DNA of 64,000 bases from Bacteroidota bacterium (GTDB lineage: Bacteria; Bacteroidota; Ignavibacteria; UBA10030). The notes under the pieces are model-generated. The model was not told where the DNA came from. It saw nothing but the letters and a program-made list of their open reading frames with translations, and ran no database searches. How positions within the stretch are numbered: the first letter of the stretch is position 1; each line of letters starts with the position of its first letter. The position numbers and the translations under genes are program-made. The DNA is taken from NCBI GenBank assembly GCA_035499415.1, contig DATJYV010000029.1, positions 589 to 64,588 of the forward strand, given 5' to 3'. Shown here in pieces: positions 12,883 through 61,440 of this stretch.

Positions 12883-15800
12883 TCAGAACTCCAGCCGCAG
12901 CCCCAGGTCGCCGGACAAACCGTACAGTTGCTCCGACTGCGGGTATCCGGCGGGGATCACGCTGGCGTCCCTGGCGCCGTTTATATTATTGATGTCGCCG
13001 TACACCTGGAGTCCGGTCCACGGAAGCTTCTGCTTGACCGAGATGTCCCAGCGCCGATAGCTTGAGGTGGTCGTCCGCAACTGCGGCCAGTAATTGGGGC
13101 CGGTGAAAATATCTGCCTGGTACAGCATCGACGCGCGTATAGAGAATCCTTCAAAATCGTATCCGACCGAAAAGTTCACGATGTCATTCGGCTGGTCAAG
13201 GAGGCGGTCGGTAAATGACGTATCGACGTAAATCAATTGGCGGCCGTTTCTTTCCGTATTCGTGTAAGGATATTGCGCCTTGGAGTACGTGTGCGTGTAG
13301 TTGATATTCAGGACGAGCCCGTCGAACGGATGCGGAAGGTACCAGAAGTGCGTCTGCCAATCTGCTTCAAGACCCCAATCGTTCACCTTGTAGGGATCGT
13401 TCACATACGTCGCAATGCTGTAAACGCCGTTCGGCGGTGAAGAAACCGGACCCGGGGGAAGATATGCGAGCGCCGCCGTGTCGCTCACGTTGAATGTCCA
13501 TTGGTAGATGAGGTTGTCGATCTGCTTGAAGAATCCCCCCACCGTGAACAGTCCGATGCTGTTCTCGTAGAAGGAGAGATAGACATCGTAGTTGCGGGAC
13601 CGGGAAGGAACGAGATTCGTATTGTTCCACGATATCGCGTTCCCGGTTGAGACATCGATGCGCGGCACGATGGCAATGTAGTCCGGGTATGCGAGGGTGT
13701 TCGAGTAGGAGAGTCGGACGTCGAACCAGGAAAGCGGTTTGTAGCGGAGGGAGACATCGGGAAGCCAATACGGGTGGTCGACCGTGATCGTGGTATCGTA
13801 ATGCGAGTAGGCGCCGCCGGTGGCCGATGCCGTCGTCTGGTATCCGCGTGGAGCCGTGTAGCTTGTCCGGAGGTCCTGGTAGCGAATCCCCGGGATGATC
13901 GTAATGTCCGATCCGAGAGCGAGGGTTGCCATGACGTAACCCGCCCCCTGATTCTCGTGCCCGCTGTAGTTGTTCGTGGTCGACGAATAATCGGAATGGA
14001 AATACGCGATCGCATCATTCTGGGCGATCAAATCCGCGCTGTTCCGAACGTAGTTCGCCATATCGGCGACCATGGGAAAGTCGAGCGGAAGGACCATGGG
14101 AAAATCGCCGTTCAGGAATTTTCCGTAGCTGAAATGCGGGTCCACAAACGGGGTGATCGGGATGCTTGTCGTCCCCGCGTACGGAGCCGTCGATGGAAAG
14201 TGTGTTGCGATGAGGTTGTCGACGTACCGCGCGCTTGCGAGACCAAGTCCCTGGCCGCTGAACTGGTCGTAAATGTATGAGCGCGTCTGATAGCGATACT
14301 TTCCGCCCGCCTTAAGCGTGGCATTGGCGACATCCCACAGGTTGACATTCGTCTCGAGGTCCAGAGACCCCGCGAAAGCCCGCTCCCGCGAGAAGCTGCT
14401 CGAGCTCACAAGGGAGCCAAGATACGTGGCATTGGTATCGTCGTTTGCCGCCTGGGCGACATACCTCGGATTGAGATTGATGACATTCGTGTACTGATTG
14501 AACCCCGCGGACGCCTGTTGAAACCCCACGGTCCAATCGCCCGGGTTCTTTGTCTCGGTATAGGCATGCGAAAACTTTGCATTGATATGAAGAGGGTCGA
14601 GCTGCTGGTCGACCGTCAATGCATTCGTCAGGATGTTCGTCGTGCTTCTCGAATAGGCCAGAGAGTACTGGTGGAGATTATCCGCAACGTCGAGAAATTC
14701 TCCGCGATTCTGGATATTTGTTGTCCCCCCGCTGCCAAAATTCATGAACGTGATTTTCCCGTCGGGAATTCGATAATCCAGCAGGAGCGTGCCGTTCGTG
14801 CGCTGGCGATCCCGCGAGATGTCGTTGAGGTTCAACCCTTTCGTGATGAAGTTGACGTAGTCCCCCGGGTGGTCAAATGAGCCGCCGTATTCGTTCGATG
14901 AGAGATTGCGCCTCTCAAGGTCCGCCTGTGCGAAGATGCCAAGAGACTGATCGTCAAAGAGTCGTCCTTCCACGCTTCCGACGTACTTGTAGTTGTTGTA
15001 CGGCAGGCTTGCGTCGGAAAGTCCGGTGTATCCCCCTTCCGCGAGAACACTGAACCCAAGCCCCGCGGCCCCCTCGCGTCCGGCGCCGGCTTCGCGTAAC
15101 TTGAAGTTCACCGTTCCGCCGAGCACGTCTCCATCCTGGTCGGCTGTCACGGTCTTTGAAACTTCGATCCCCTCGAGCATGTACGGGGAGATCATACTGA
15201 GGTCGGAGCTCCGGTCACTCTCCCCCGACGACGTCATCCGAACACCGTCGACCATGATCGCGTTGTATTTCGGCTGTAATCCCCGGACCACCACTTCTGT
15301 CCCTTCACCGCCGTTGCGGAGGACAAAAATTCCCGGGAGACGGCCGACCGCTTCCGCCGCGTTCGCATCGGGGAGTTCCTGGATGCGCGCAGCCGAAACG
15401 ACATTGACGATCCGGTCCGAAGCAAGCTGTTCGTTGATCGCCTCCTTTTGCCCCTTTGCCTGTGCGGTCACGATCACTTCCTGTCCTTCGATCGCGACGG
15501 GGTCGAGCTTGACGTCCAGGGATACATCGGCCCCCGCCTTGACTTCGGTCGGGAGCTCAAGGGTCTTGTAGCCCACATACGCGAACCGAATGGTGTAGGA
15601 ACCCGGCGGGACGTCGCGAATCGCATACTTTCCTTCTTCGTCCGTCGCCATGCCAAAACTCGTCCCCTCCAGCTGCACAGCGGCGGAAAAGAGCGGCTCT
15701 CCGGACACCGCATCCCGGACGCGTCCCGAGATCGTGGGGTTCGACCCCGCTTTTGCACCGGCGACGGCACAGAGCGTCGCACAAAGAATCAACATCAATA

Positions 15801-39939: not shown

Positions 39940-40497
39940 TTAGTCCGTCAAAGTCAAGGTTACGAGACGTTCGTCTCTGTCGATTCCACCGACGCCGGAA
40001 CCTGCGACAAAGGTGTATCGGATCGACTGGTCTCTGTCGCTCCCCCTGCCGATCCCGGTCACGACATCAACAGGTACGAGGGCCGCTGAAATGTCGACAT
40101 CGCCAACGCTGCTTGCGCGTCCCGACGCGAGGTTGATCTTGAGCCGGGTTCCACTCGGCATGCTTGAGTTGATCGAGGCAACGATTTTCACATTATCGAG
40201 ATTTGTCGCTATGCTGTATTGCGAATGCTGGTCGGAAACGCTTACGTCTTCGCCCGCGTAGACCTTTTGCACCATGAGAGGCGCAGGATTTCCCGTCACT
40301 CTCAGCACTGCTATCGGCCGGACCTCGACCGTTACGATCTGCTTCACGGAGCTGTGAATCGGCTGCGGGAATGCGACCGAAATGATTGACAGGAGGGAGA
40401 GCCCTATGAACGGAAGTCTCGTCAAGGGATGCGATCGATGAGGCAAGAACGCTAAAGATGAAGCGATTGTCAAGTTTGCAATTGGCGCCGGTGGCAT
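39940..40497 (-). CDS. Small secreted pilin-like subunit (family member 2)
   Basis: The C-terminal half (...SVGDVDISAALVPVDVVTGIGRGSDRDQSIRYTFVAGSGVGG..RLVTLTLTD) parallels the 46205/46758 paralogues. The signal peptide is LPFIGLSLLSIISVAFPQ. The start is an ATG (MPPAP) or a TTG further in. Confidence 0.45.
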   Translation of the reverse strand: MPPAPIANLTIASSLAFLPHRSHPLTRLPFIGLSLLSIISVAFPQPIHSSVKQIVTVEVRPIAVLRVTGNPAPLMVQKVYAGEDVSVSDQHSQYSIATNLDNVKIVASINSSMPSGTRLKINLASGRASSVGDVDISAALVPVDVVTGIGRGSDRDQSIRYTFVAGSGVGGIDRDERLVTLTLTD

Positions 40498-40681
40498 GTT
40501 CGATCTTGGGCGAATCATGACCACAGGAAGGACAACAACCATGCCCTCCCGCCAGCTCACGCCGCGAAGGAGCAACGTCGATAACTAATTGCCAATAAGG
40601 ATGTTGGAGAGAGGTGATTCGAAGGGCTGGAAGATGGAGGGATGATCGAATTGTAGTTTCTACAATTCCACAGCTATCAGC

Positions 40682-43600
40682 TCACTGCTCGTGCCCTACT
40701 GACTTGCAGATAGCTTCAGCGGCAGCGCGCGTATTGAATTTCCCGGTAATGACCCGGTAGCGAATCCCAAGGTTGGGGATGTTCACTCGGTCGACAAAGA
40801 CTTTGCGTCCCAGGATCTTTCCCATATGCGACCCTTGGGACTGTGCCTTGGCGCGCGTTTTCCAGGACGATATTTGGACCATAAACTTCTTTGAGGGCCT
40901 ATCGAAGAATATAAGGCAAGGACCGGGCTCGTCCATCTGCGCCTTCGGCTCCTTGACTTGTTCCTGGGGAGCAGGTTGCGGCGCGTTCTCGGGTTTTTCC
41001 GGTTCTATCACCCCTTGCTGGATGATTTTGATGATCCGTTTGCGTGGTAGAATTTTGAAATCGCCCTCCGCGTGAGTTCCGGCCTTCAGCTCCAGGGCAA
41101 GCGAATCCGGTTCCATGCGATGATAGTCGGGAATATCCCCCCCTTCAATTCTGAGTGTCCAACTTCCGGGTCGCAGGTCCCCGAAAACGTACCTCCCGCG
41201 ACTGTCCGTCACGCGTCTGTGAACCTCATCCCCCTGGTATAACGCCATGAAGACTCCGGCCCTTGCTTCCTTCTCGCGATACACCGTTGCACCCAAGGAA
41301 TCCGAAGGTGCCTCCTCGTTCACTTCATACAAAACGACGGTCCCCGATACCTGCGCACTTCGTGTGACGTTGATCTGAACAGGCGTTTCCTCTCCCCCAC
41401 GTACCTCGACTTCGAGCGGCATCGGCTGGAGCGTCACGCGGTCGAGCCCGATGCTCTCTTTGTCGACCTGAACATAGATCGGCCCCGGTTTCACGCCCGG
41501 CAGGTAGAATTCTCCGTTCCCGTCGGTCACTGAAGCCGATTCTCCCGCGTTCACGAGAATATTGGGCAAGCCCACTCCCGTCTCGCCGACGACCCGGCCC
41601 CGCAACGACCCGACCGATCCAATGCGGGCGATGGGGACGTTCAACGGAATGGCATATTCAAGAAGATATGCCGTTTCGCGCGGCGTCACCGCCGGCGTGA
41701 GAAGATTCTGCCGCGCCCGGAGCGTGATCTTGTGGTTGAAGGGGAAAATATGTTCAAGCGAGAATTCGGACAACGTGCTCGTTTGTGGCGTTGCACTGTT
41801 CACCCTGCTGCCAAAAATGTTGAATTGGACCTGCGTCGCCTCCCCAAAAAGCACCCATGCCGATAAGCTGGCCGAGAGCCGCTCTTCTACTTCTCCCGTG
41901 TAAATATCCTGGTCGTTTGAGTACTCGACGGAAGCGCTGTAGTTCTGCGCGGCCGTAGGACGCACCGACGAGAATAGGGATACGTGCTGGTATGGATAAT
42001 TCTTCAGCGCGAGCTTGTCCTCGATGACGCCGTATTCGGAATTCCCGTTGATACTCACGCCGGCGAAATTGAAACCGACCCGCATCTGAAACGTGTTTTC
42101 GCTTCGCCGGTACTTCGGATTTTCCAGCAGATCATCCTGTCCGTCGTAGTGGTAGTAGAAGGACACAAGGTCAAAGTACGAAAGGCCAAGCTGGTAGAAT
42201 TGGTCGCGGGGAGCGTATATTTGATTCGTGTCGCGCGCAAGATTCCGTTCTTCGTCCCGAAAATAGGTTTCGAGCCGGATCGTCTTCGAGATTTGATACG
42301 AAATGCTGCTTGATTTGAAGCTCAGGTCGCGGTAGTATCCTCCGAAGTTCGTCCCTGCATCGATATACCGGATATCGTAGGCGAGCGACGGCTCTGTGCC
42401 GTTGAATCGGAGGGCAACTGCGTCATCGCTCTTCCCTTCCATGGCACCGCGGCCGTATTCGACGTCGACGCTGGAGTTGGTGAATGGATGCGACAGTCCC
42501 CGTAACGTGTAGAGGTCGCTCGAGTATTGATCCCTTCGGTTGAGGTAGTTGGCGCCAAGCTCGTAATCGGGGGAAAATTGATAGCTCACGAACCCTCCGC
42601 CTTCATCCTGCCGCTGGTCGATCCATCGGGTTTTGTCGTACAATCCTCCCACAGAGAACCCGGCGACCGTCGTTCTTGCGCCCGCCCCTGTCGCAAACCG
42701 TCCGCTCTCGGTCAGGGGAGAAAGCGTATAGTTCATGTCCCCGAGCTGCAGTTCCGTCGCACTGTTCACGTACGACAGGTAATATTCATCACGCAAGCCC
42801 AGAGAGGAAATCGATTGCGTCTCCGGTCCCCGCGCGAGGAATGAAAATTTGTCGTCCCGTTTCTCTGACAGACTCCCATAGCCGGATACTTCGAACTGCG
42901 TGGACCGCGCATCCTGCTCGCCCACACCCCGAAGCTTGAGCTGAATGGGATACTCTACGAACTGTTCTTCTCCCTGCGATTCCTGGGAAACAACGTCGGT
43001 CACGACCGAGGCACTCACGGCAACCGTGGAGTCCTGCCTCGAAGTCGCGATGAGCTGAAGGGTTTGATGGACTTTTCCCGCCCCCTTGTCCGTTACGACG
43101 GAGACCGGAATTTCGCGCGTGTCGCGCGGATTGAGTGCGATAACGGGGTCCGGGACCTTCGTCGCGTATCCCTCCGAAGACCTGGCTTCAAGGGTTACCG
43201 TCACCGGAGTGTTTCCGGCGTTCGTCAGGTCGAACGTTGCCGTAAAGGACCGTCCCCCAATGACAAATCGGGGCGCGTCGATGGGTTCGATTTTCAGGAG
43301 GTAAATCGTCTCCACTTTCACGGTTATCTCGGCAGCGGCCTCGTGCGCGGGCGTTGCACGGTCTTTCGCCAGATACCGGAGACGATAGAGTCCCCCCGGT
43401 ACTTCTCCGGGAACTGCAAGGGTCAGAATCCGCGCGTCGTTGGCGCCGGCTTCGAGCGTGAACTGCGACTCGGGAGTCACCAGCCGCCACTTCGTCGGAA
43501 CCTGTACCTGGGGGTCGAAGGTCTGCGTGGAGCCGGTTCGATTCGTGACGACCACGCTGAAGGAAACGATTGAGCCCGGCTTGACCGACAAGATCTCACG

Positions 43601-43732
43601 CGTCCCCGGAACGACGTCAATCTCCCCCTGCGCGCGCGAGAGACGCAGCTGACCGGTCATTGCGACCGCGAGCCCCAGAAAAAAAAACATCCGGCCGTGT
43701 CTGACCGGATGATGTCGTGTCGGTCTCCTCAA
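40682..43732 (-). CDS. Large outer-membrane, usher-like assembly protein: N-terminal Ig-like (CARDB-like) domains, central beta-barrel-like region, two CarbopepD_reg-like domains, C-terminal SPOR peptidoglycan-binding domain
   Basis: 1016 aa. TTG start with a charged n-region, or ATG at M15. The central aromatic-alternating strands are GLSYFDLVSFYYHYDG and FQMRVGFNFAG. GRVVGETGVGLPNILVNAGESASVTDGNGEFYL and VSGTVVLYEV..VTDSRGRYVFGDLRPGSWTL are transthyretin-like folds. The C-terminal FMVQISSWKTRAKAQS...YRVITGKFNTRAAAEA is a SPOR motif. The printed sequence appears 1 nt short somewhere within this gene (the track length is a multiple of 3, hand-counting is not). Confidence 0.55.
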   Translation of the reverse strand: MRRPTRHHPVRHGRMFFFLGLAVAMTGQLRLSRAQGEIDVVPGTREILSVKPGSIVSFSVVVTNRTGSTQTFDPQVQVPTKWRLVTPESQFTLEAGANDARILTLAVPGEVPGGLYRLRYLAKDRATPAHEAAAEITVKVETIYLLKIEPIDAPRFVIGGRSFTATFDLTNAGNTPVTVTLEARSSEGYATKVPDPVIALNPRDTREIPVSVVTDKGAGKVHQTLQLIATSRQDSTVAVSASVVTDVVSQESQGEEQFVEYPIQLKLRGVGEQDARSTQFEVSGYGSLSEKRDDKFSFLARGPETQSISSLGLRDEYYLSYVNSATELQLGDMNYTLSPLTESGRFATGAGARTTVAGFSVGGLYDKTRWIDQRQDEGGGFVSYQFSPDYELGANYLNRRDQYSSDLYTLRGLSHPFTNSSVDVEYGRGAMEGKSDDAVALRFNGTEPSLAYDIRYIDAGTNFGGYYRDLSFKSSSISYQISKTIRLETYFRDEERNLARDTNQIYAPRDQFYQLGLSYFDLVSFYYHYDGQDDLLENPKYRRSENTFQMRVGFNFAGVSINGNSEYGVIEDKLALKNYPYQHVSLFSSVRPTAAQNYSASVEYSNDQDIYTGEVEERLSASLSAWVLFGEATQVQFNIFGSRVNSATPQTSTLSEFSLEHIFPFNHKITLRARQNLLTPAVTPRETAYLLEYAIPLNVPIARIGSVGSLRGRVVGETGVGLPNILVNAGESASVTDGNGEFYLPGVKPGPIYVQVDKESIGLDRVTLQPMPLEVEVRGGEETPVQINVTRSAQVSGTVVLYEVNEEAPSDSLGATVYREKEARAGVFMALYQGDEVHRRVTDSRGRYVFGDLRPGSWTLRIEGGDIPDYHRMEPDSLALELKAGTHAEGDFKILPRKRIIKIIQQGVIEPEKPENAPQPAPQEQVKEPKAQMDEPGPCLIFFDRPSKKFMVQISSWKTRAKAQSQGSHMGKILGRKVFVDRVNIPNLGIRYRVITGKFNTRAAAEAICKSVGHEQ
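43678..43687. repeat. Homopolymeric A9/T9 tract inside the 5' end of the usher-like gene (codons FFF)
   Basis: cagAAAAAAAAAcat on the plus strand, i.e. ATG TTT TTT TTT CTG on the coding strand. Unusual in a 60% GC genome. Coordinates approximate. Confidence 0.8.
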
Positions 43733-43741
43733 GGCAGTCTT

Positions 43742-44569
43742 TCAAAACTTCAGGACGTACTCTGCGCCGAAAATGTCGTCCCCTCCCGCATCGACCACGA
43801 CGCGCGCCTTGTAATTGCCGGGGGTGACGCTGCTGACGTCGATCGTCTGCCGCACGGATGTCCCTGGATAAATGCGGTATTTTACTCCCTCGAATTTACC
43901 GCGCGCAACCCCTTTCTCATCGAACAAATCGACGGTGACATCGGGACGCATGACGAGCTCCCCCGTATTTTCAATATCGATCTGGAGCGCCCTCTTCCCT
44001 TCTTCCTTCGCAACCAGCTTGGCGCCGATGAAATTAACTTTCTTCGTGCCGGTGTTCGCAATCGACGTGGCGATCTGGATCCCGTACCGGATCGTCTGCA
44101 TGATCCCCATCTGCGCCTTCGTGTCCTTTTGTCGAAGGGAAGACTCGGCGGAGCCCTTCTGAATTCCCTCGACCATCAGCATGCTCCAGTAGGTTCCAAT
44201 CAGGGGCTTCCCTGTCAGATCCTTGGGGACAGCCACCGAATAGTCGATCGCCATGGTGGACGCCGGCGGCAGGGTCAGGTAGGCGGGGCTGAAGGTCACC
44301 CACTTTGCGTTCGAGCGGGGCATCGACCCGGGATCACCGTAGTTATTCGTTCCGGAATAATGAAACGTGTAGTCCGTTTGATAAACCTTCGCTTCCTGCG
44401 GCTCGTTCGTGTCGTTCCGGATGATGATTGAACCCGTATACGTTTCGCCAGGCCTCGCCATCTTGTCCTGGCTGAGCTCGCCGATGACCGAAACTTGTCC
44501 CAAGAGAAAATTCGGGACAAGGAAAAGGAAAAAGAGGGCTGTTCGTTTGAGGAGGAGGGAGAGAGTCAT
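43742..44569 (-). CDS. Periplasmic Ig-fold protein, candidate chaperone-like partner of the small subunits
   Basis: Signal peptide MTLSLLLKRTALFFLFLVPNFLLGQ (the longest ORF starts at 44647). Two beta-sandwich-like halves. The N-terminal I.I.N....P pattern is reminiscent of PapD-like N-domains. Same reading frame as the usher-like gene, separated by TGA plus 3 codons. Confidence 0.35.
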   Translation of the reverse strand: MTLSLLLKRTALFFLFLVPNFLLGQVSVIGELSQDKMARPGETYTGSIIIRNDTNEPQEAKVYQTDYTFHYSGTNNYGDPGSMPRSNAKWVTFSPAYLTLPPASTMAIDYSVAVPKDLTGKPLIGTYWSMLMVEGIQKGSAESSLRQKDTKAQMGIMQTIRYGIQIATSIANTGTKKVNFIGAKLVAKEEGKRALQIDIENTGELVMRPDVTVDLFDEKGVARGKFEGVKYRIYPGTSVRQTIDVSSVTPGNYKARVVVDAGGDDIFGAEYVLKF

Positions 44570-44576
44570 AATGTTC

Positions 44577-45029
44577 CTATTGAGCGACGAGTGTGTAGGT
44601 GATTGTATGGACATCGTTGCCGAGTTCGGCGCTGTTGCCTTGTTCAAATGTTGCCGATGCGGAGTACTTCAGGGTCGCTGTGGCATTCGTTGTCCCCGTG
44701 GCGGGGATGTTCGTGATGAAATCGGCGGCAGCCATTCCGTTCGTCAATGTCACGGCAGGGGACGCAACTCCTTTCGTCGGACTCACGGCAACCACAGAAA
44801 GCGAAAAACTCTGGCCCGAGCAAACGGTTGCCACAGTGACCTTTGAGATGGCCGTTTGCTTCTTGTATGTCAAGGTGCAGGAAGAATTTGTCACAGCGGC
44901 GGGTTCAGAGCCCGCGACTCCGGTAGTTATAGAGAGCGTCTTATTACCTCCGGAAATGCTGATTTGTTGAGCTGAGGCGCTTGACAGAAGCAATGCGACT
45001 GCGGGTAAGAGGAGCAAGAGCTTGTGCAC
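44577..45029 (-). CDS. Small secreted pilin-like subunit (family member 3)
   Basis: GTG start gives the signal peptide MHKLLLLLPAVALLLSSASAQQ (the longest ORF starts at 45143). Two Cys. C-terminal strand HTITYTLVAQ. Confidence 0.45.
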   Translation of the reverse strand: MHKLLLLLPAVALLLSSASAQQISISGGNKTLSITTGVAGSEPAAVTNSSCTLTYKKQTAISKVTVATVCSGQSFSLSVVAVSPTKGVASPAVTLTNGMAAADFITNIPATGTTNATATLKYSASATFEQGNSAELGNDVHTITYTLVAQ

Positions 45030-45033
45030 GGCT

Positions 45034-45537
45034 TTATTGGGTCGCGATAGTGAACGTGATCGTGTGCGAATCCGTCCCCGTTCCCTGGGAGGCAAGGGCA
45101 ACGGCAGTATATTGGAGCGTGCAACTTCCTGTGCTTCGGCCAAGATTGGTCAGAAAATCCTGGGCGGTGTGTGTGATGGTGACCTGGGAAGCTGCGGTCC
45201 CGACCGTGGGGTTCAGGGCAACGAGTTTGAGTGCAAAGAGTTGTGTTGTCAGATTCGTTTGCACCGTAACCTTTTTGGTACTGCTGTTGATGCCCCATTG
45301 GAGGGATGTTGCCTGGTTAGTGGCGCTCATGGTGTTCTGGCCCGCCACGGCGTTGGCCCCCGTAATTGTGAAACTGACTGCGCCTCCGGTTACCGTCACG
45401 TTGGTAATCGTCGAAACCGTGACCGTGATCGTGTGGGACGCTGATCCATACGTCTGACCCTTGGCAAGAAACAGAGGAAGGATGAAAAATATCCCCAGCA
45501 ATATCGGGCGGTTGAATCGAGGTCGAAGGGATCCCAT
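45034..45537 (-). CDS. Small secreted pilin-like subunit (family member 4)
   Basis: Signal peptide MGSLRPRFNRPILLGIFFILPLFLAKGQ. Thr/Val-rich strands. C-terminus SHTITFTIATQ. The SCTLQYTAVALASQG motif is shared with member 5. Confidence 0.45.
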   Translation of the reverse strand: MGSLRPRFNRPILLGIFFILPLFLAKGQTYGSASHTITVTVSTITNVTVTGGAVSFTITGANAVAGQNTMSATNQATSLQWGINSSTKKVTVQTNLTTQLFALKLVALNPTVGTAASQVTITHTAQDFLTNLGRSTGSCTLQYTAVALASQGTGTDSHTITFTIATQ

Positions 45538-45610
45538 ATATTCGCGAAACACGTTCGGAGCCGGTGAAATATAGCCCTCTAATCGAGGATTATCAAGTTG
45601 AGACAGTGCC

Positions 45611-46120
45611 TCAACTCCCTGTAATAGTATACGTAATCGTATGCGTCTCGCTCCCGACCCCCTTTTCAAGGGTTGCGGCCCCCGTGAATTGAAGCGTGCA
45701 GCTTCCCGCCGAGCGACTCACCCCAACGATGAGGTCGTGAGTCGAGTTGTCAGAAAACACCACGTCGCTCGAACTGACCCCCGACCCTGAACTGACGTCC
45801 TGGGCCGACAAGCGAAGGTCGAATTTTGAACCCGACCGATCGCTTTCGGCCGTAATCTTTCGATTCTCCCCGTTACTCGTCCAGACCAACCTGGTAGCGC
45901 CGCTCATCGCGGGCGAAGGGTTGGAAGTTTCCGGGTCGAAATCGGTGATCTTGAGCGTAACCGGACCGCCTGAGATATCTATCGTGTTCAGTTCGAGGAC
46001 TTGAAGCCGAATCACCTGCGTGACCGAAGCACGCTGGGCGAAAAGTGTTGCGGACCCTGCTGCGAAAATCAGGAGGGTCTGCAGTGCTCTTCGTCTTATG
46101 TCGTGTCGTTTGGTGTTCAT
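45611..46120 (-). CDS. Small secreted pilin-like subunit (family member 5)
   Basis: Signal peptide MNTKRHDIRRRALQTLLIFAAGSATLFAQ. SCTLQFTGAATLEKG motif. C-terminus THTITYTITGS. Confidence 0.45.
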   Translation of the reverse strand: MNTKRHDIRRRALQTLLIFAAGSATLFAQRASVTQVIRLQVLELNTIDISGGPVTLKITDFDPETSNPSPAMSGATRLVWTSNGENRKITAESDRSGSKFDLRLSAQDVSSGSGVSSSDVVFSDNSTHDLIVGVSRSAGSCTLQFTGAATLEKGVGSETHTITYTITGS

Positions 46121-46204
46121 CGCTCGAGGCCTCGAAGATAGAAAAACCGTAGCGGCGACAGCTGGAAAACGCACGCTACGGCTTTCTCTCTCCTCCAGAG
46201 ATTC

Positions 46205-46705
46205 TTAGTTCGTCAACGTTAAGGTGACTACTTTTGCTGTGGATGAAAGCGTACCGGCAGAAGCGTTCGCACCGAATGAGTAGGTGATCATCTGGCCGGC
46301 ATCCGCGCCTCTGTTGATACCTGTAACGACGCTCAAAGCACTGCCGGATGTTGCGTTGGAGATATCGACCGCTCCGGCGCTGGTCCCTTTGGAGCTTGCA
46401 AGGTTAATCGAAAGCGAGTAACCGGACGAAAGGGCGGCATCGAGATTCGCCGTGATCTTCACCGTATTCGCGTAGTTCTGCGTGATGCTGTAGGTCGTTG
46501 AATTGTCCGTGACGCTCGTGAGGTTATCCGATCCAGGAGTTCCGGTCGTGATCGTGAGGGCTCCCGGGTTTCCCGACGTCGAGATCTTGTAGATTGCGTT
46601 GACGGCGAGGTTCAGATTCTGCGTTGCCGTGGCTTGTGCGACTGCCGACTCGACGAGCAGAGAGCTGGCGGCGACAAGCGCGAGGGTGATGATGGTCTTT
46701 TTCAT
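46205..46705 (-). CDS. Small secreted pilin-like subunit, candidate major subunit (paralogue A)
   Basis: 166 aa. Signal peptide MKKTIITLALVAASSLLVESAVAQA. The mature N-terminus ATATQNLNLAVNAIYKIS has an alternating donor-strand-like pattern. C-terminal VVTLTLTN. About 75% identical to the next gene. Confidence 0.5.
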   Translation of the reverse strand: MKKTIITLALVAASSLLVESAVAQATATQNLNLAVNAIYKISTSGNPGALTITTGTPGSDNLTSVTDNSTTYSITQNYANTVKITANLDAALSSGYSLSINLASSKGTSAGAVDISNATSGSALSVVTGINRGADAGQMITYSFGANASAGTLSSTAKVVTLTLTN

Positions 46706-46757
46706 GATGGTATCCGTTCGATGAAGGTTGAGGTTTGGTGGTTTTTCAATTCGGTTG

Positions 46758-47252
46758 TTAGTTCGTCAGCGTCAACGTTACGGTCTTGGCCAGCGATGAC
46801 AATGTTCCGGCAGAAGCCGTTGCGGCGAAGTTGTAGGTAATGACCTGGGCTGCATCCGCACCGCGCTGAATGTTCGTGACCATGTTGACGGCGCTGGACG
46901 ACGTCGCATTGGAGATGTCGACACTTCCCGCACTCGTGCCTTTGGTGCTCGCAAGGGTCAACTTGAGCGTATAACCAGCAGCAAGGGCTGCGTCAAGGTT
47001 CGCCGTGATCTTCACAGTATTACCATAGTTCTGTGTAATGCTGTAATTCGTTGATGCATCGGAAACGGACGTCAGGTTGTCGCTCCCGGCTGTGCCTGTC
47101 GTGATCGTGAGCGGGCTCGGGTTGCCGGACGTCGCTATTTTGTAAACAGTGTTGACTGCAAGCGTGACGCTCTGAGTCGCAGTGGCCTGAGCCAGCAGAG
47201 TCTGAACTCCTGCGAAACCGAGAAGAGAGAGGGTTGCGATTAACTTCTTCAT
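46758..47252 (-). CDS. Small secreted pilin-like subunit, candidate major subunit (paralogue B), first gene of the operon
   Basis: Start trimmed to MKKLIATLSLLGFAGVQTLLAQA, preceded by an AAGGAG RBS. The mature ATATQSVTLAVNTVYKIA...TVTLTLTN parallels paralogue A. Confidence 0.5.
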   Translation of the reverse strand: MKKLIATLSLLGFAGVQTLLAQATATQSVTLAVNTVYKIATSGNPSPLTITTGTAGSDNLTSVSDASTNYSITQNYGNTVKITANLDAALAAGYTLKLTLASTKGTSAGSVDISNATSSSAVNMVTNIQRGADAAQVITYNFAATASAGTLSSLAKTVTLTLTN

Positions 47253-47379
47253 GACGAACTCCTTTTGTCTGGATTGGTGGATCGTTTTGTTTCCCGTATA
47301 ACCATCAATCCCCATGCCAATCCAGTTTTTGAACGAAAAATGGCGTTTTCCCAGATACGATTTGTTTTTCGTGAATTGA

Positions 47380-47399
47380 AATGATACATTTGTATCATT
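47380..47399. promoter_or_regulatory. Perfect palindrome AATGATACA-tt-TGTATCATT in the divergent promoter region
   Basis: Read directly in the AT-rich spacer between the pilin-like operon (minus) and the HisKA/sigma54-activator genes (plus). Candidate enhancer or operator site for the adjacent sigma54 activator. Confidence 0.4.
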
Positions 47400-47551
47400 A
47401 TAGGATTATGCTGTATTATAAAGCAAAAATGCCTCAATACCAAAATATGATAGAACTATTTGACTCTTTTTGAGACATGTCACCAGCTATCAGAGTAGCA
47501 ACATACCACAAATTCTGGCCATTATGTAATGATTTCTGCGGTCTGATCTCC

Positions 47552-47567
47552 TGGCATATCGATTGCT
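47552..47567 (+). promoter_or_regulatory. Sigma54 (-24/-12) promoter TGGCAT-N5-TTGCT
   Basis: cTGGCATatcgaTTGCTg gives the exact GG-N10-GC spacing. It lies about 36 nt upstream of a GGAGG RBS and the ATG at 47603. Confidence 0.55.
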
Positions 47568-47602
47568 GTCTTCAATTGAAACAAACTGCCGGAAGGAGGA
47601 TT

Positions 47603-47893
47603 ATGGCGCAGAGTAAGCTCAGAATCATGTCTCCGGAAGAAGCGGTACGGGAGTACCATGTTCGGACAGAAATCGCGACCCGGTTGTCGCACGAGTTCCG
47701 GACTCCGCTCACTTCCATCATCGGCTACGCAGAGACCATCATGTGCAGTCCGGACTTAACAGCAGAACAGCGAGACGAGTTTGCAGCTCTTATAAAGAAG
47801 GAGGGGGAACGGCTCGTGAGACTTGTGACCTTGATTGTCGAACAATCGATTCAGGGTTCGGCGTCACAGTCCGATCCATCCATATTTAAATGA
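47603..47893 (+). CDS. Free-standing HisKA (DHp) domain protein, 96 aa, with no ATP-binding domain
   Basis: MAQSKL...RLSHEFRTPLTSIIGYAETI carries a canonical H-box with the phospho-acceptor His, and the protein ends after the four-helix region. The longest ORF (from 47477) has no RBS. The stop lies 20 nt before the activator gene, in a different frame. Confidence 0.55.
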   Translation: MAQSKLRIMSPEEAVREYHVRTEIATRLSHEFRTPLTSIIGYAETIMCSPDLTAEQRDEFAALIKKEGERLVRLVTLIVEQSIQGSASQSDPSIFK

Positions 47894-47912: not shown

Positions 47913-49298
47913 ATGCCATCAAACCATCTCATATATATTGTCGACGACGAGACATCCATCGCCAAGCTGCTGGAAGTCTGGGTCAGCCAGAAATGGGGGT
48001 ACCGAGCGCGGCTCTTTTCGGACGGCGAAACGTGTCTTCATGCCCTCGATGAGGGGGCGGACCTGGTTCTTCTCGACCTGATGCTGCCCGGTATCGATGG
48101 TGTCGCCGTGCTCCAGGAAATCAAGCGCCAGAAGCCGGAGCTTCCTGTCATCGTGCTGTCCGCCCAGGCAAAGATCGAGGTTGCCCTTCAGACATTGAAA
48201 TTAGGCGCAACGGACTATTTCAGCAAACCCGTTGACCTCCCGAAGCTCGAAATCGGCATCAAGAATGCCCTGCGACTTGCGGACTTGACGCGGGAAGTCG
48301 AGCGTCTTCGTCAAGACGCCGAAACGAAGGTCCACTTCGATCATATTGTGGCCCAGAGCGGCGAGATGGCTGACGTTTTCAAGCTCGTCTCAAAGGTCAA
48401 GGAGAGCGACATTCCGGTACTTATTCTCGGCGAGAGCGGAACCGGAAAGGAGCTCATCGCCCGGGCCGTCCATTTCAACAGCGGCCGCAAAGACAGACCG
48501 TTCGTTGTCGTCAACTGCGCTTCGATTCCCAAAGACCTTCTCGAAAGCGAGCTCTTCGGGCACGAGCGTGGAGCGTTCACCGGCGCCATCCAGCGCAGGG
48601 TCGGAAAATTCGAACAGGCAAACGGAGGGACGATCTTCCTCGACGAAATTGGGGAGCTCGACCTGAGCCTGCAGTCAAAACTCCTGCGGGCGATTCAGGA
48701 AAAGCAGTTCAACCGAGTCGGGGGGAATGATGTGATCACGACGACCGCGCGTCTTATTTCCGCGACAAACCGGGATTTGCGTGAGGAAGTAAAGCAGAAG
48801 CGATTCCGGGAGGATCTGTACTTCCGTCTCTCGACGTTTCCCGTCATGCTCCCGCCTCTCCGGGAAAGAAAGTCGGATATCGTCCTTCTTGCCGAACACT
48901 TTCTGCGGCAGTTTTCCGAGGAGCAGAAGAAACCCCACCTGCGGTTTTCACGAAAGGCGCTCGACGACCTTTACAACTACCCGTGGCCCGGAAATGTGCG
49001 CGAGCTGGAGAATGCAATCCAACGGGGCGTCGTCCTTGCCGACGCGGCGGAATTGACCGAGCGCGAACTGCCCCTCTCAGTCCAGACATATTCGGGGTTT
49101 GAATCGACGGAGCGTCCCGCATTTTCGTTCGCCAAGAGCAACGACGTCGTCGTCCCTTTCGAAAAGTTGAAGGAGGACGCGATAAGGAACGCGCTGCGCA
49201 TCACCCACGGGAACATCGTCCAGGCGGCCCAACGCCTCAAGATCGGCCGGGCGACGCTTTACCGCTTGATGCAAAAATACAAAATCGAGGCGGACTAG
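47913..49298 (+). CDS. Sigma54-dependent response regulator (NtrC family: REC - AAA+ sigma54-interaction - Fis-type HTH)
   Basis: REC with LLDLMLPGIDG. Walker A GESGTGKE. GAFTGA motif (ESELFGHERGAFTGA). C-terminal HTH (IVQAAQRLKIGRATLYRLMQKY). Start trimmed to MPSNHLIYIVDDE (the longest ORF starts at 47835). Confidence 0.85.
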   Translation: MPSNHLIYIVDDETSIAKLLEVWVSQKWGYRARLFSDGETCLHALDEGADLVLLDLMLPGIDGVAVLQEIKRQKPELPVIVLSAQAKIEVALQTLKLGATDYFSKPVDLPKLEIGIKNALRLADLTREVERLRQDAETKVHFDHIVAQSGEMADVFKLVSKVKESDIPVLILGESGTGKELIARAVHFNSGRKDRPFVVVNCASIPKDLLESELFGHERGAFTGAIQRRVGKFEQANGGTIFLDEIGELDLSLQSKLLRAIQEKQFNRVGGNDVITTTARLISATNRDLREEVKQKRFREDLYFRLSTFPVMLPPLRERKSDIVLLAEHFLRQFSEEQKKPHLRFSRKALDDLYNYPWPGNVRELENAIQRGVVLADAAELTERELPLSVQTYSGFESTERPAFSFAKSNDVVVPFEKLKEDAIRNALRITHGNIVQAAQRLKIGRATLYRLMQKYKIEAD

Positions 49299-50414: not shown

Positions 50415-51074
50415 CTAGGAAACCAAACCGCTTTTGATCGCTTTGGCCACGGCTTCCGCCCGGGAGCGGACGTGGAGCTTTGCGTAGATATTACGGAGGT
50501 GGAAACTCACGGTATTCACGCTGACGAAAAGTTTGTCCGCAATCGCCTTGTACGTATAACCGTCGATGAGGGCCTGGAGAACCTCGAGCTCCCTTTTGGA
50601 GAGCGTTGAAGAGAGACTGTCGGCCTTCTGCGTCTGGAAATAGGCGAGCACCTTGCGTGCCACCTCGGTCGACATCGGGGCCCCGCCGGCGTATGCATCC
50701 CGTATGGCGGCCAACAGAGCTTCCGGAGAGGTCTTTTTCAGGAGATATCCCACCGCCCCCTGCCGGAGCGATTGAAATATCTTTTCGTCGTCGCTGTGCA
50801 CCGTCAACATCAGACACTGAATATTGGGATACCGCCGCTTCACAATTTCCACGCACTCAATGCCCGATTTCTCCGGAAGACCGATATCCATCAAAACGAC
50901 ATCCGGCGGATCGTCTTCGAGGATGGCTAACGCATCGCCACAGCTCCCATGGGCGCCGGTGCATGCAAATCCGGGGGAATGCTCAATGACCCAGCGAAGG
51001 CCATTGCGGATTTCAATATCGTCATCGATGATTGCGACCCGGATTGCGGGAATTTGGCCGTCGTGTTCCTGCAT
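50415..51074 (-). CDS. NarL/FixJ-family response regulator (REC plus LuxR-type HTH)
   Basis: REC (IRVAIIDDD...VVLMDIGLP) and a C-terminal LuxR HTH (LSKRELEVLQALIDGYTYKAIADKLFVSVNTVSFHLRNIYAKL). Confidence 0.85.
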   Translation of the reverse strand: MQEHDGQIPAIRVAIIDDDIEIRNGLRWVIEHSPGFACTGAHGSCGDALAILEDDPPDVVLMDIGLPEKSGIECVEIVKRRYPNIQCLMLTVHSDDEKIFQSLRQGAVGYLLKKTSPEALLAAIRDAYAGGAPMSTEVARKVLAYFQTQKADSLSSTLSKRELEVLQALIDGYTYKAIADKLFVSVNTVSFHLRNIYAKLHVRSRAEAVAKAIKSGLVS

Positions 51075-51098
51075 ACCAGCGCAAGCTACGATGCAAGG

Positions 51099-51134
51099 TC
51101 GGATGAATCAACTACGTACATGCGTAGTTTCATC
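51099..51134. promoter_or_regulatory. Extended palindrome GGATGAA-tc-AACTACG-tacatg-CGTAGTT-TCATCC containing AACTAC-N8-GTAGTT (copy 2)
   Basis: Located between the sensor-kinase stop (51130) and the LuxR-RR start (51074). Same 6-N8-6 motif as at 50340. Confidence 0.4.
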
Positions 51135-54093
51135 CCCGAACCGGAAATGTCGCCTCGACCCGGGTCCCTTCGTGGACGTGCGAACTCAATCGAAACGTCC
51201 CGCCCGCCTCTTCCGTCCGCTTCCGCATGTTTGCCAGTCCGTTCCCTTCGTTTTTTTTCTCCGCGCTCAAACCTACCCCGTTATCACTGACGACAACGGC
51301 GAGGCTTGAGCCGGTGCGATGGAAGGAAATGGAGGCGGCGCTGGCCCTTGAATGACGGGCGACGTTCGTAAGAGCTTCTTTCGACAGGAGCAGCAGACTC
51401 CGCATCCCTTCGGAGCTCATTCGTATTTCCCCAACCCCCTCCCCCACGTCAAAATACAACCGGATGTTCCTGCCTTCGCACATCTCATAGGCAAAGGACC
51501 GAAGACGCTGGACCAGCCGCTCGAGGGAGTCATGCGTGGGGTCGATGGACCAGACGACATCGCTCATGTTTTCGATAAGCTCACGGGCGGTTTCCGAGAC
51601 TTTTTCGAGGGATTCCTTGACCGTCGTGCCATCTCCCGGCAGCGATGAACCCTCTTCGCCCGCAGAAACCTGCCGTCGCACGACATCGGACAGAATGGCG
51701 ATGCGTGTCAATCCCGACCCGATATCGTCGTGCAAATCGGTCGCAATGCGCGAACGAATCCGCTCGATCTCTAGAAGACGCTGCAGACGAAGTCGCACGG
51801 CAATCACGATCGTCGTTAAGAGCAAGATCGAAAAGGCGGCGACGAACCACGGCCGGCGCCAGATCGGGGGGACGATGACGAACCGGATCGTTGCCGGATG
51901 CGCGCTGACCACCCCGCTGTTTTTCACCGCTCGAATTTCGAGCGCGTATGAACCCGGAGCAAGTGCGCCAAAAAAGAAATGGCGATCCTTCCCGGGCGGC
52001 TGCCAGTTGTCATTTGAGCCGAGCAGACGGTACTGGTACCGAAGCTCACCCTCTTCCCGCAGGCTGACTCCCGCAACTTCCACCGTGCAGTTATTTTCAT
52101 CGCTGCTGATTTCCAGTATTCCCGACGTTGGCTTGTCTCTCCCGTTAACCTGGAATTGGCTGACCACGATCGGCGGGGGAATGGTGTTCGGCGCGTCATG
52201 CTCAAAATCGTAGACCGACAGCCCCGCCTCGGAGACGTACCAGAATTTGTGCGAACCCGTCTCGCCGCATCCATACACCGGTGAGCCGGTCATTTCCTTC
52301 ACCGTCTGAAAAACCCGCGTCGCCCGGACCAACGACTGCACTCCCATTTGCGTCCCGACCCAGATCGATCCCTGTTCGCTTGCGGCAATGCACCAGACTG
52401 CTGTGCTGAGCAATCCTTCCTTGAGCGATACCGGGACGAACGACGAGTCGGATAAGTACGCAAGCCCGCCATATCTCATGCCAATCCACAGACGACGGTC
52501 GGGTGTCTCGATGATCGCACGGATGGAAGTATTGGGGAGCCCGTCTGCCAGCCCGAAGCGATGCACCGGCCCCATCCGTTTTTCTCCCGCGCGGATGAGG
52601 CCCAGGCCTTCCGAATAACCTCCCAACCATATATTCCCGGCCCGGTCTTCACAGAAGGCCCGAATGGAGCCGTCGAACAAACCGTTTTCAACGGTGAGTT
52701 TCCGCACCAGGGAAAAGTTATTGTCGGGATCCAGAACCCGGATACCAAGGTTACCGTCAAGACTGATCCAGAGCAAACCCTCCATGTCAACACGAATGAA
52801 AAGGGGATGCGCATTCGGATATTGAGCGCCCGGTCGGATATGAACCAGCGGAGTGAGGGAGGAGAATCCGCCAGCGCCCGGCTTGATTGCAAACTCGGAT
52901 ATGCTCCCGTCGCGGAGGGACACCCAAAGATGGTTTTGCCGGTCGAACGTAACCGTCCATGGGGCTGCTTCGCCTTTTCGTGTCTCATTCGGGTGGATGA
53001 GCTTCCTCCATCCGCCGGTTGAATCCTCACGGAATTCCCCGATTCCCCGTTCAGTACACAACCAGATGTGGCCGCCGGAATCCACCGCTGCGGTGGCGTT
53101 GTTCGGTGCAAACGGAATGACTCCCACCGGATAGGTTCTGATATTCCGATTCGTCAGCTTCGCCAATCCGGAGGAGGAACAGGCAATCCAAAGGTCCCCT
53201 TCGGAATCGACAGTCCCCGCGATCATGCCGGGCGGCAATCCGTTCTTCCCGGCATAGTGCACCATGTTCATTCTACCGTCCCGCACTCCCTCAACCAGGA
53301 AAAGGCCCTGCGCAGCCGCAATCCAGACGGCGCCCGATTTGTCGAGGGCGATGAATGAATGGCCGCCGCTTCCGGTGGAGAGCGTCCGTCGAACACCCTC
53401 GTTCTCAAAAAGCAGTACCCGGCCGGCGGAGGTTGCGAGCCATTCGATCCCCTTCCCGTCCGCGCAACCCGTTTCGATCAACTCATTCTTCCGCAGGCTC
53501 AGCGGGAGTACGCGCGGAGGGAGTTTGGGATTTGTGCAGACATGAATCGAGGTGGAGCCAACAATCCACACCGTCGAATCGCTCGCTCGAAGCATCGTCG
53601 GGATGTCGCCCCTTATTTCCTCCGCACGGAACGGAACGAAGGCGGTATCAACAAGAACAAAGACCCCCCTCGTTGTTCCCGCCCAGACCCGCCCGCTCCC
53701 GTCTTCGGCGATCGATTCGACGATATTCGTCCACGGGTTCCTTCCCAGGCGAAAGGTCTGAAAACGTCCGCCGGAGAATCTGCTCACTCCGCCGCCGTTT
53801 GTCCCGACCCACAATACGCCGGGCTGCGATCGGCTTTCGATGATACATGTGACGCGGCTGAGCGCAAGGCCGTCTGCAACGGTGTAATTCCTGAACGATG
53901 TGCCGTCATAGGACGTAAGGCCCTCGTTGCTTCCGATCCAGAGGAGCCCGCCGGAATCGACGGCAAGCGCGAGCAGAAAGTTGGACAAGAGTCCGTCGCG
54001 GGAAGTATATCGGCTGAACGGCAGAACCTGCGTCCGGGCGGTGAGGAGGCAGAGGGCAAGTGCTGCCGTGAGGACAGACGTTCGTTTCATCAC
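51130..54093 (-). CDS. Ligand-sensing hybrid-architecture histidine kinase (periplasmic two-component-regulator beta-propellers plus Y_Y_Y domain - TM - HisKA_3 - HATPase_c)
   Basis: 987 aa. Signal peptide. Many Reg_prop-type repeats (GLLWIGSNEGL, VLWVGTNGGG...). TM (WFVAAFSILLLTTIVIAV). HisKA_3 H-box ATDLHDDIGSGLT. ATPase. Cognate to the downstream NarL-type RR. Confidence 0.8.
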   Translation of the reverse strand: MMKRTSVLTAALALCLLTARTQVLPFSRYTSRDGLLSNFLLALAVDSGGLLWIGSNEGLTSYDGTSFRNYTVADGLALSRVTCIIESRSQPGVLWVGTNGGGVSRFSGGRFQTFRLGRNPWTNIVESIAEDGSGRVWAGTTRGVFVLVDTAFVPFRAEEIRGDIPTMLRASDSTVWIVGSTSIHVCTNPKLPPRVLPLSLRKNELIETGCADGKGIEWLATSAGRVLLFENEGVRRTLSTGSGGHSFIALDKSGAVWIAAAQGLFLVEGVRDGRMNMVHYAGKNGLPPGMIAGTVDSEGDLWIACSSSGLAKLTNRNIRTYPVGVIPFAPNNATAAVDSGGHIWLCTERGIGEFREDSTGGWRKLIHPNETRKGEAAPWTVTFDRQNHLWVSLRDGSISEFAIKPGAGGFSSLTPLVHIRPGAQYPNAHPLFIRVDMEGLLWISLDGNLGIRVLDPDNNFSLVRKLTVENGLFDGSIRAFCEDRAGNIWLGGYSEGLGLIRAGEKRMGPVHRFGLADGLPNTSIRAIIETPDRRLWIGMRYGGLAYLSDSSFVPVSLKEGLLSTAVWCIAASEQGSIWVGTQMGVQSLVRATRVFQTVKEMTGSPVYGCGETGSHKFWYVSEAGLSVYDFEHDAPNTIPPPIVVSQFQVNGRDKPTSGILEISSDENNCTVEVAGVSLREEGELRYQYRLLGSNDNWQPPGKDRHFFFGALAPGSYALEIRAVKNSGVVSAHPATIRFVIVPPIWRRPWFVAAFSILLLTTIVIAVRLRLQRLLEIERIRSRIATDLHDDIGSGLTRIAILSDVVRRQVSAGEEGSSLPGDGTTVKESLEKVSETARELIENMSDVVWSIDPTHDSLERLVQRLRSFAYEMCEGRNIRLYFDVGEGVGEIRMSSEGMRSLLLLSKEALTNVARHSRASAASISFHRTGSSLAVVVSDNGVGLSAEKKNEGNGLANMRKRTEEAGGTFRLSSHVHEGTRVEATFPVRG

Positions 54094-60805: not shown

Positions 60806-61440
60806 GGCGATGGCTAAGGTGACAGCGCCCGCCGGGACATGAGGGAAAATTCCTGACGCGCAGCCGTACTACGCGGAAGATGAGCGCACGTTCGCGCGAA
60901 CGAAGGATGAATGAGAGAGGTGACACCGTTGTGGCATCGCGCAGCGTTCACGTGAGTGCCACGAACCGAAAGAGAAAAAATCCCTCCTTCGTGAGATGGC
61001 TCTCCGAATGTGAAATGCACGGATTCCCCCCTACGCGTCAACAGCGAGTGATGGAAAAATCTACAGTAGGATGGTTCGCTTTGTCTCTGAGCGGTGGCCT
61101 AACCCGCCTGGATGAGAGAAGCGAGTTGATCGGAGTGAACATCTCTACCCCCTTCCATCTTTGCACAAATGCCTGAAATAGGTTCAGCCATTCCCTTCTC
61201 AGTTTTGAAAATAGCTGACTGTGGTAGTAAAGTCAAGCTAGTTCTCGAGACAATTCTGGGAATCTCAGAAAGCCTATGCCGTGCGGTCTAGGGACCGTTG
61301 GGTTAAGCAGGGTCGATTGAGAGCCGCTGAGTTATCAGAGCGAGGGAAACCGAAACGAGAACCTCCTGCATCCAGCCTATGGTGTCAGCGAAGAAAGAAG
61401 GAAACTTGTCTCGGAATGAAACACTCTTGGAATTCATAAT

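Follow-up and report, generated by a model that had tools for sequence, protein, structure and literature searches.

A predicted bidirectional sigma-54 control region between an NtrC-type regulator operon and a secreted-subunit operon in a Bacteroidota bacterium

We analysed a 64,000-nucleotide stretch of DNA from a Bacteroidota bacterium (assembly GCA_035499415.1, contig DATJYV010000029.1, positions 589 to 64,588), hereafter called the window, and focused on the spacer between two divergent transcription units. On the minus strand, the first gene of an operon of secreted subunits starts at ATG 47252 and is preceded by the AAGGAG ribosome-binding site (47259-47264, minus strand) that an earlier note on this DNA had read in the sequence. 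On the plus strand, the gene for a HisKA-only protein of 96 amino acids (aa) starts at ATG 47603 with a GGAGG site ahead of it (47595-47599), and is followed by the gene for an NtrC-type enhancer-binding response regulator. The non-coding spacer between the two units measures 350 bp (47253-47602); the earlier note gave 160 bp because it used the maximal open reading frame (ORF) limits, 47315 and 47477. G+C content is 34-40% across the spacer, compared with ~55% in the flanks. The proposal of a divergent control region, made in the same note, was supported, as we found two outward-facing sigma-54 promoter elements that are conserved in related loci. Together with three dyad-symmetric sites lying between them, these elements make it likely that the spacer is a bidirectional, enhancer-dependent sigma-54 control region, at which the activator would switch both its own operon and the secreted-subunit operon.

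Predicted sigma-54 promoters on both sides of the spacer

Related loci were collected in a metagenome scan with the first subunit, which returned 36 loci. Using tblastn we found the same divergent order in 14 of the 36, representing ~11 independent lineages with regulators that are 60-69% identical. In this order, the ntrC and hisKA genes lie on one strand, and the genes for the subunits and for proteins corresponding to the 301-aa and 1016-aa products of the window lie on the other. A further locus with the same layout (L052) was found on a 3.64-Mb contig (ERZ25039512 contig_14908). The conservation counts below refer to 12 non-redundant loci that share this arrangement. Regulator homologues from Ignavibacteria (~54% identity, the only ones returned by a genome-collection scan) were also tried as a footprinting set and were rejected, as no subunit operon, dyads or sigma-54 elements lie near them.

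On the regulator side, we found the element TGGCATATCGATTGCT (47552..47567, plus strand), which reads TGGCAT-N5-TTGCT with the canonical GG-N10-GC and is an exact consensus match. It is the sole exact match to TGGCAYNNNNNTTGCW in the 64-kb window, and it was absent from the earlier note. The element ends 36 nt before ATG 47603 and precedes the gene for the HisKA-only protein and that for the NtrC-type activator. Judging from its -12 position, the start site of this operon is predicted at about 47578 (plus strand), 25 nt before the ATG. On the subunit side, the element TTGGCATGGGGATTGAT (47304..47320, minus strand, given as the reverse complement of the plus-strand letters) lies 52-68 nt upstream of ATG 47252, with the GG at 47318-47317 and the TTGA at 47308-47305. 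Compared with the strict consensus TGGCAC-N5-TTGCW, the GG, the spacing and the TTG of this TGGCAT-N5-TTGA sequence fit, and at -12 an A stands where the consensus has C. This departure leaves the prediction of a promoter standing, with a subunit start site at about 47293 (minus strand), again placed from the -12 position. Exact TGGCAY-N5-TTG sequences occur twice in the 64 kb, compared with 0.67 expected; both are in the spacer, and each faces its own gene.

The comparison across loci showed that both elements are conserved. TGGCA and TTG are each present in 12 of 12 loci on the subunit side and likewise in 12 of 12 on the regulator side, where a TGGCAY-N5-TTG element stands at the homologous place in every locus. 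The subunit-side element is oriented towards its gene and begins 64-93 nt before the ATG. The flanks of the promoters vary among loci while TGGCA and TTG stay constant, with a distance of 220-267 bp between the two promoters. On the subunit side, TTG is followed by A in 11 loci, by T in one and by C in none; on the regulator side, by A in six, by C in three and by T in three. The earlier note had described TGGCAT-N5-TTGAT at 47304-47320 and, from the GA in place of GC at -12, rated it a weak candidate. The element is there as described, but the rating did not hold: with the element conserved in 12 of 12 loci and A at -12 in 11 of them, A is the norm of this subunit promoter and therefore neither a defect nor a weakness. 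In Salmonella, sigma-54 sites with TTGT (pspA, pspG) and with TTGA (STM0649.S) are functional (PMC3844500, Table 3). A literature search on a lineage-specific -12 base in Bacteroidota returned nothing specific.

Further sigma-54-like elements were seen in the related loci. In five lineages (L020, L021, L024, L025/L027 and L038), another TGGCAY-N5-TTGA promoter lies farther downstream, inside the subunit gene cluster (L020 4772, L021 1168, L024 3604, L038 3855, L025 3112 and L027 2682). In L020, L021, L024 and L038 this promoter is accompanied by dyads of its own and stands ahead of a second subunit paralogue. L052 has a third sigma-54 promoter, at 14035, before the gene that follows its 1007-aa protein. 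No internal sigma-54 promoter was found in the subunit cluster of the window. The 5' leaders of the first subunit gene (47253-47300, minus strand, in the window, aligned with the homologous leaders) share an A/C-rich, GAAACAAAAAC-like motif. Most leaders of the relatives carry CAGA at the predicted start site; the leader in the window is shorter and has no CAGA. In addition, a perfect 9-bp inverted repeat, CTGGATTGG / CCAATCCAG (47269-47277 and 47317-47325), flanks the subunit-side promoter. Of its arms, one overlaps the -24 element and the second falls in the 5' leader; the repeat may be due to chance.

Conserved dyads and the 20-bp palindrome

When 7-mers were counted between the promoters of 11 relatives, TGTATCA/TGATACA and TCATAAT/ATTATGA came out on top, each in 9 of the 11. 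An iterated matrix (14.8 bits) was built from 30 sites of the relatives, with the window excluded. Its consensus is TGTATCATAATGATACA, a 17-bp dyad of the form TGTATCA-N3-TGATACA (7-N3-7), in which C6, T11 and C16 are invariant among the 30 training sites. Scanning the window with this matrix gave four matches of at least 8 bits in 64 kb, and three of them are in the spacer. Among shuffled spacers, 1.3% held at least one match of such strength and none held two. Proximal dyad 2, TGAATTGAAATGATACA (47372..47388, 10.9 bits; TGTATCA-TTT-CAATTCA on the minus strand), has its axis at 47380, ~-87 from the predicted subunit start site. Proximal dyad 1, TGTATCATTATAGGATT (47391..47407, 10.9 bits; AATCCTA-TAA-TGATACA on the minus strand), has its axis at 47399, at ~-106. 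Distal dyad 3, TGACTCTTTTTGAGACA (47461..47477), which is absent from the earlier note, is the best match in the window (14.1 bits); its axis at 47469 lies at ~-109 from the predicted regulator start site and at ~-176 from the predicted subunit start site. Relative to the predicted regulator start site, the axes of dyads 2 and 1 lie at -198 and -179.

The positions of these sites are conserved as well. The three dyads of the window stand 61, 80 and 150 bp from the T of TGG, at positions homologous to those in the relatives. Across loci, the centres of the proximal pair are always 19 bp apart, which leaves 2 bp between the two dyads. The inner dyad is 60-62 bp from the T of TGG in seven lineages, the window counted, and 70-73 bp in four, two classes that differ by one helical turn. 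The distal dyad of the relatives lies 60-91 bp from the regulator-side TGG. Three dyads are the usual layout, found in most loci, and the same dyad-plus-promoter layout was seen in the held-out loci L019, L021, L023, L028, L041 and L052. Over 300 kb, we counted 2.31 dyads per kb at distances of up to 300 bp from sigma-54 elements versus 0.037 per kb elsewhere, a ~60-fold contrast that is partly circular, as some of these sites had served to train the matrix. Enhancer sites of sigma-54 activators are dyad-symmetric, usually present in several copies, and found ~70-150 bp upstream of the -24/-12 promoter (PMC4987338, PMC3844500), mostly at 80-150 bp (PMC4987338). The placement of the dyads at ~-87 and ~-106 on the subunit side and at ~-109 on the regulator side falls within this range. 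Between dyad 2 and the -24 element lies a stretch of A/T tracts (47324..47350; agttttt, then gaaaaatggcgttttc), and in most relatives an AAAA-N-TTTTT element abuts the -24 element. These tracts may supply an intrinsic bend that aids DNA looping.

Dyads are restricted to one kind of locus. They are present in all loci that have the adjacent ntrC/hisKA pair and were not found in a more distant, higher-G+C clade of the operon (L042, L043, L044, L045 and L047), which has no such pair next to it. These distant loci carry TGGCACGATGTCTGCA, or TGGCAC-N5-CTGCA, with the canonical GC, 90-99 nt before the first subunit ATG and at the same place as the subunit-side promoter of the window. The retention of a sigma-54 promoter in the absence of adjacent ntrC and of dyads indicates that sigma-54 control of this operon is older than the dyad module and the local regulator, and that the activator of the distant operons must be encoded elsewhere. 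The fourth match in the window, and the only one outside the spacer, is TGTCTCGGAATGAAACA (61407-61423, 13.2 bits); it is intergenic, with no sigma-54-like element near it.

The earlier note had drawn attention to a palindrome in the spacer, AATGATACA-tt-TGTATCATT (47380..47399), as a site suitable for a dimeric helix-turn-helix (HTH) regulator. We found it with its perfect 9-bp arms, and a search for further copies showed that it is unique in the 64-kb window with up to three mismatches allowed. By itself the palindrome is unremarkable: perfect inverted repeats with 9-bp arms and a 0-6-bp spacer occur six times in the window, and ~1.3% of shuffles of the intergenic region hold a perfect inverted repeat with 9-bp arms. 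The minus-strand sequence of the proximal region is (AATCCTA-TAA-TGATACA)-AA-(TGTATCA-TTT-CAATTCA), so that dyad 1 contains the right arm of the palindrome and dyad 2 the left arm. The four half-sites match the consensus at 2, 7, 7 and 4 of 7 positions; in relatives the corresponding values are, for example, 7, 5, 5 and 7 or 6, 6, 6 and 6. As a 17-mer the palindrome scores below 6 bits, and the matrix places the dyad axes at 47380 and 47399 and not at 47389.5, with weak outer half-sites in the window. The palindrome is thus probably the junction of the two proximal dyads, made of their perfect inner half-sites and the 2-bp gap and flanked by degenerate outer ones. The suggestion of a dimeric HTH site was therefore right in that the arms are real half-sites of a conserved motif, but the recognition unit is probably the 17-bp dyad. 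Similarly, the proposed placement about 100 bp upstream of the promoter holds for the palindrome, whose centre is ~96 bp from the predicted subunit start site, but the palindrome is probably not the binding unit itself.

It could be argued that the palindrome, with its 9-N2-9 symmetry and axis at 47389/47390, is itself the functional site and accommodates one dimer, whether of the NtrC-type regulator or of a different HTH protein, the outer half-sites being irrelevant in this genome. Its arms are perfect and the outer half-sites are poor (2/7 and 4/7). In addition, the arm read from this axis (TGTATCA) shares its TG...CA frame with the half-site TGATACA, and the proximal dyads of relatives are not clearly more complementary within themselves (4.0 and 3.2 of 7) than across the junction (3.1 of 7). 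It is this small excess that keeps the single-dimer explanation as a minor rival, and it also means that the main support for the 7-N3-7 register comes from the isolated distal dyads and the invariant TCA-N3-TGA core. Those isolated dyads are clearly 7-N3-7 (in L019 a perfect TGTATCATAATGATACA, and also in L022 and L040), and the 17-mers of the window stand exactly at the conserved 61- and 80-bp positions, which supports the same register. By contrast, no relative has a comparable junction palindrome, and complementarity across their junctions is 1-5 of 7. Furthermore, the DNA-binding helix is conserved, and a dimer of the same geometry should refuse everted half-sites with a spacing 1 bp shorter. 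We therefore regard a single site centred on the palindrome as unlikely.

Less probable still is that the palindrome is an operator through which a repressor controls a housekeeping promoter of the sigma-70 or Bacteroidota type, with no relation to sigma-54. Immediately upstream of the palindrome, the minus strand has a TTGGTA-17-TATAAT match (47443 to 47415), and on the plus strand TTTG (47361-47364) and TAcaTTTG (47385-47392) resemble the -33 and -7 elements of Bacteroidota. However, such matches are at the chance level for AT-rich DNA (3 matches versus 1.0 ± 1.0 in shuffles), and neither promoter-like element is conserved in the upstream sequences of the relatives, whereas conservation of the sigma-54 elements and of the dyads extends to every locus. 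Finally, the number of comparable inverted repeats in the window and a possible RNA fold of -7.0 to -9.7 kcal/mol lend little credibility to a chance repeat, a terminator-like RNA or DNA hairpin or a mobile-element end with no regulatory role, given that both arms are exact copies of the half-site most enriched in relatives, that the palindrome sits between divergent gene starts and upstream of both predicted start sites, that the fold is weak with no T-run after it, and that no second copy occurs in the window.

The regulator, its partner and the target operon

The regulator encoded next to the spacer (47913..49298, plus strand, 461 aa) has the domain make-up of an NtrC-family activator, as the earlier note had it, including the Fis-type HTH. 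Pfam searches identified Response_reg (1.6e-25), Sigma54_activat (4.6e-70) and HTH_8 (1.4e-08), corresponding to REC, AAA+ and DNA-binding domains. The AAA+ domain carries GAFTGA together with the Walker A sequence GESGTGKE and the Walker B sequence LDEIGE. The intact GAFTGA implies sigma-54 only indirectly, and the source genome is presumed to have an rpoN gene. The closest solved structures are NtrC1, LuxO and ZraR. All NCBIfam scores fall below the cut-offs, with 442 versus 714 for AtoC, 414 versus 559 for NtrC and 387 versus 760 for ZraR, and the score for the PEP-CTERM regulator is also below its curated cut-off, indicating that the regulator is no equivalog of any named regulator. Orthologues conserve the recognition helix of this protein, GRATLYRLM.

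The first gene of the regulator operon encodes the 96-aa protein (47603..47893, plus strand; Pfam HisKA, E = 1.8e-12). The product has the dimerisation/phospho-acceptor domain only, with an intact H-box (SHEFRTPL) and neither a sensor nor an ATPase domain. The partner in relatives is a kinase of 210-270 aa, likewise without a sensor domain, that has HisKA and HATPase_c, except in L025 and L029. The HATPase_c domains of relatives span a range with the canonical domain of L038 (96 bits) at one end and the degenerate one of L017 (23 bits) at the other, and the domain has also been lost in the lineage of L025 (1125-1490) and L029 (3278-3637). Separate losses in the window and in that lineage mean that HATPase_c was probably lost at least twice.

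The target operon (40682..47252, minus strand) comprises five subunit paralogues, a protein with a chaperone-like fold and a 1016-aa protein. The five paralogues (46758-47252, 46205-46705, 45611-46174, 45034-45669 and 44577-45143, minus strand) are predicted all-beta proteins with Sec-type signal peptides; they match no Pfam or NCBIfam family, and the structure model of the first is unreliable (predicted local distance difference test, pLDDT, 42). The next gene (43742-44647, minus strand) is a 301-aa ORF annotated as 275 aa, and its product has no Pfam or NCBIfam match. Modelled in the 275-aa form, it folds with a pLDDT of 87 into two immunoglobulin (Ig)-like domains behind an N-terminal helix. 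The best Foldseek match of this model is a WxL-interacting protein of Enterococcus faecium (E = 1.6e-14, template-modelling (TM) score 0.5), followed by the periplasmic chaperones CfaA, CsuC, FimC, Caf1M and PapD of chaperone-usher systems (E = 1e-8 to 1e-10, TM 0.4-0.5). Its family has >1,100 metagenome members, nearly all unannotated. The 1016-aa protein (40682-43732, minus strand) has CarboxypepD_reg and a C-terminal SPOR domain in Pfam, the latter a peptidoglycan-binding domain. Its N-terminal Ig-like domains match FixG_C and NPCBM_assoc, with a weak match to 'choice-of-anchor T'. It occupies the place of an usher in the operon and, at the level of sequence, gave no Usher match. Sequence searches of the PDB with the subunits, the 301-aa protein and the 1016-aa protein returned no match. 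The gene order of the operon is kept in L017, L018, L022, L036, L038 and L052.

These findings on the subunits, the chaperone-like protein and the 1016-aa protein leave the label 'pilin-like operon' of the earlier note plausible but unproven. That sigma-54 controls pili and other surface structures is a recurrent observation (PMC3162934).

Two other features adjoin the locus. A perfect hairpin, GAATTGTAG-aaa-CTACAATTC (40648-40668), is found 14 nt past the stop codon of the 1016-aa gene, ahead of an eighth subunit-like ORF (39940-40575), with no T-run after the hairpin and no sigma-54 promoter ahead of that ORF. Beyond the regulator, a second two-component pair (50415-54093, minus strand) encodes a 987-aa kinase and a LuxR-type response regulator. 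Judged from its sequence, the kinase has beta-propeller-like repeats and one transmembrane segment. A one-mismatch sigma-54-like match inside the LuxR-type regulator gene (50647-50662) is probably due to chance.

Proposed mechanism and known systems

Together, the findings above suggest the following mechanism. Sigma-54 RNA polymerase would be held in closed complexes on the two outward-facing -24/-12 promoters, that at 47319-47305 (minus strand) leading into the secreted-subunit operon and that at 47552-47567 (plus strand) into the genes for the HisKA-only protein and the regulator. Phosphorylated dimers of the adjacent NtrC-type regulator would bind the dyads at axes 47380, 47399 and 47469, and three dimers could assemble into a hexamer that forms the AAA+ ring. 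The A/T-tract DNA between dyads and promoters would bend or loop over the short distance, and ATP hydrolysis by the ring would remodel the sigma-54 holoenzyme and open both promoters. The regulator would thereby be under positive autoregulation and would also induce the fibre-like operon. Enhancer binding, DNA looping and ATP hydrolysis are the textbook scheme for such activators (PMC4987338), and the mechanism itself is textbook enhancer-dependent sigma-54 control. The modest curiosities are the fixed A at -12, the kinase cut down to a phospho-acceptor domain, and the unannotated target operon.

In addition to the small complementarity excess within proximal dyads, several points weigh against this proposal. 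The proximal dyads of the window are the weakest of the set (10.9 bits each, compared with 13-20 bits), and dyad 1 breaks the invariant C6 while dyad 2 breaks the invariant T11. The Ignavibacteria homologues of the regulator share its recognition helix, yet no dyads lie near their genes, so that a link between protein and motif cannot be drawn from the helix alone. Moreover, the partner kinase has no ATPase domain, although the mechanism calls for a phosphorylated regulator.

The spacer nevertheless provides a testable regulatory model for an uncultivated lineage, with two predicted promoters, three candidate enhancer dyads and one identified regulator, and the model concerns a functionally unannotated operon that appears to build a surface structure. 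Combined in one search of complete genomes from the group, TGTATCA-N3-TGATACA and TGGCAC-N5-TTGA could reveal the remaining members of the regulon. Sigma-54 promoter tolerance and ATPase-less two-component signalling could be approached, in a small but concrete way, from the fixed A at -12 and from the HisKA-only kinase. As a tentative extension, the region might be a conserved switch of an undescribed surface-fibre system in soil and sediment Bacteroidota and Ignavibacteria-like bacteria. If this were true, the family-less secreted subunits, the chaperone-like or WxLIP-like protein and the 1016-aa SPOR-tailed protein would newly appear as one system. The lineage-fixed A at -12 may then alter the hold on the closed complex, and the repeated decay of the partner 'kinase' to a phospho-acceptor domain would imply an unusual phosphoryl input.

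PilS-PilR and sigma-54 drive the type IV pilin gene pilA in Pseudomonas, Myxococcus and Geobacter. There, as proposed for the fibre-like operon of the window, a two-component activator and sigma-54 serve a surface-fibre subunit gene. Unlike PilA, the subunits of the window have ordinary Sec-type signal peptides, are predicted all-beta and are not type IV pilins, and the target operon contains no type IV pilus genes.

NorR acts from three enhancers upstream of norVW, where a hexamer forms from three bound dimers (PMC4987338). The three dyads of the window resemble this arrangement, and a similar stoichiometry is conceivable; NorR is activated by a ligand through its GAF domain, whereas the regulator of the window has a receiver domain. 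The enhancer of NtrC at glnAp2 and other Ntr promoters is a 17-bp dyad, TGCACC(A/T)4TGGTGCA (PMC4987338). Like those of the window, NtrC enhancers are 17 bp long with a 7-N3-7 form and an A/T-rich centre, and occur in several copies ~80-150 bp upstream of a -24/-12 promoter; both proteins also share the order REC-AAA+-Fis-type HTH, with binding by the regulator of the window being predicted. They differ in the half-site, which is TGTATCA in the window and TGCACCA for NtrC, and in the proximal dyads of the window, which abut with a 2-bp gap at 19 bp from centre to centre, and the regulator of the window is below the NCBIfam cut-offs for NtrC, AtoC and ZraR.

The closest architecture is that of zraP and zraSR in E. 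coli and Salmonella, where ZraR drives divergent sigma-54 promoters (PMC4987338). The locus of the window departs from it in its unrelated enhancer sequence, in a target that is a multi-gene operon of secreted subunits with a chaperone-like-fold protein, in a partner that is a sensor-less 96-aa phospho-acceptor protein and not a membrane sensor kinase, and in its host, an uncultivated Bacteroidota. In both systems a two-component activator is associated with two divergent sigma-54 promoters in one intergenic region, one promoter for its own kinase-regulator operon and the other for a target, which in the case of zraP is the gene of an envelope protein.

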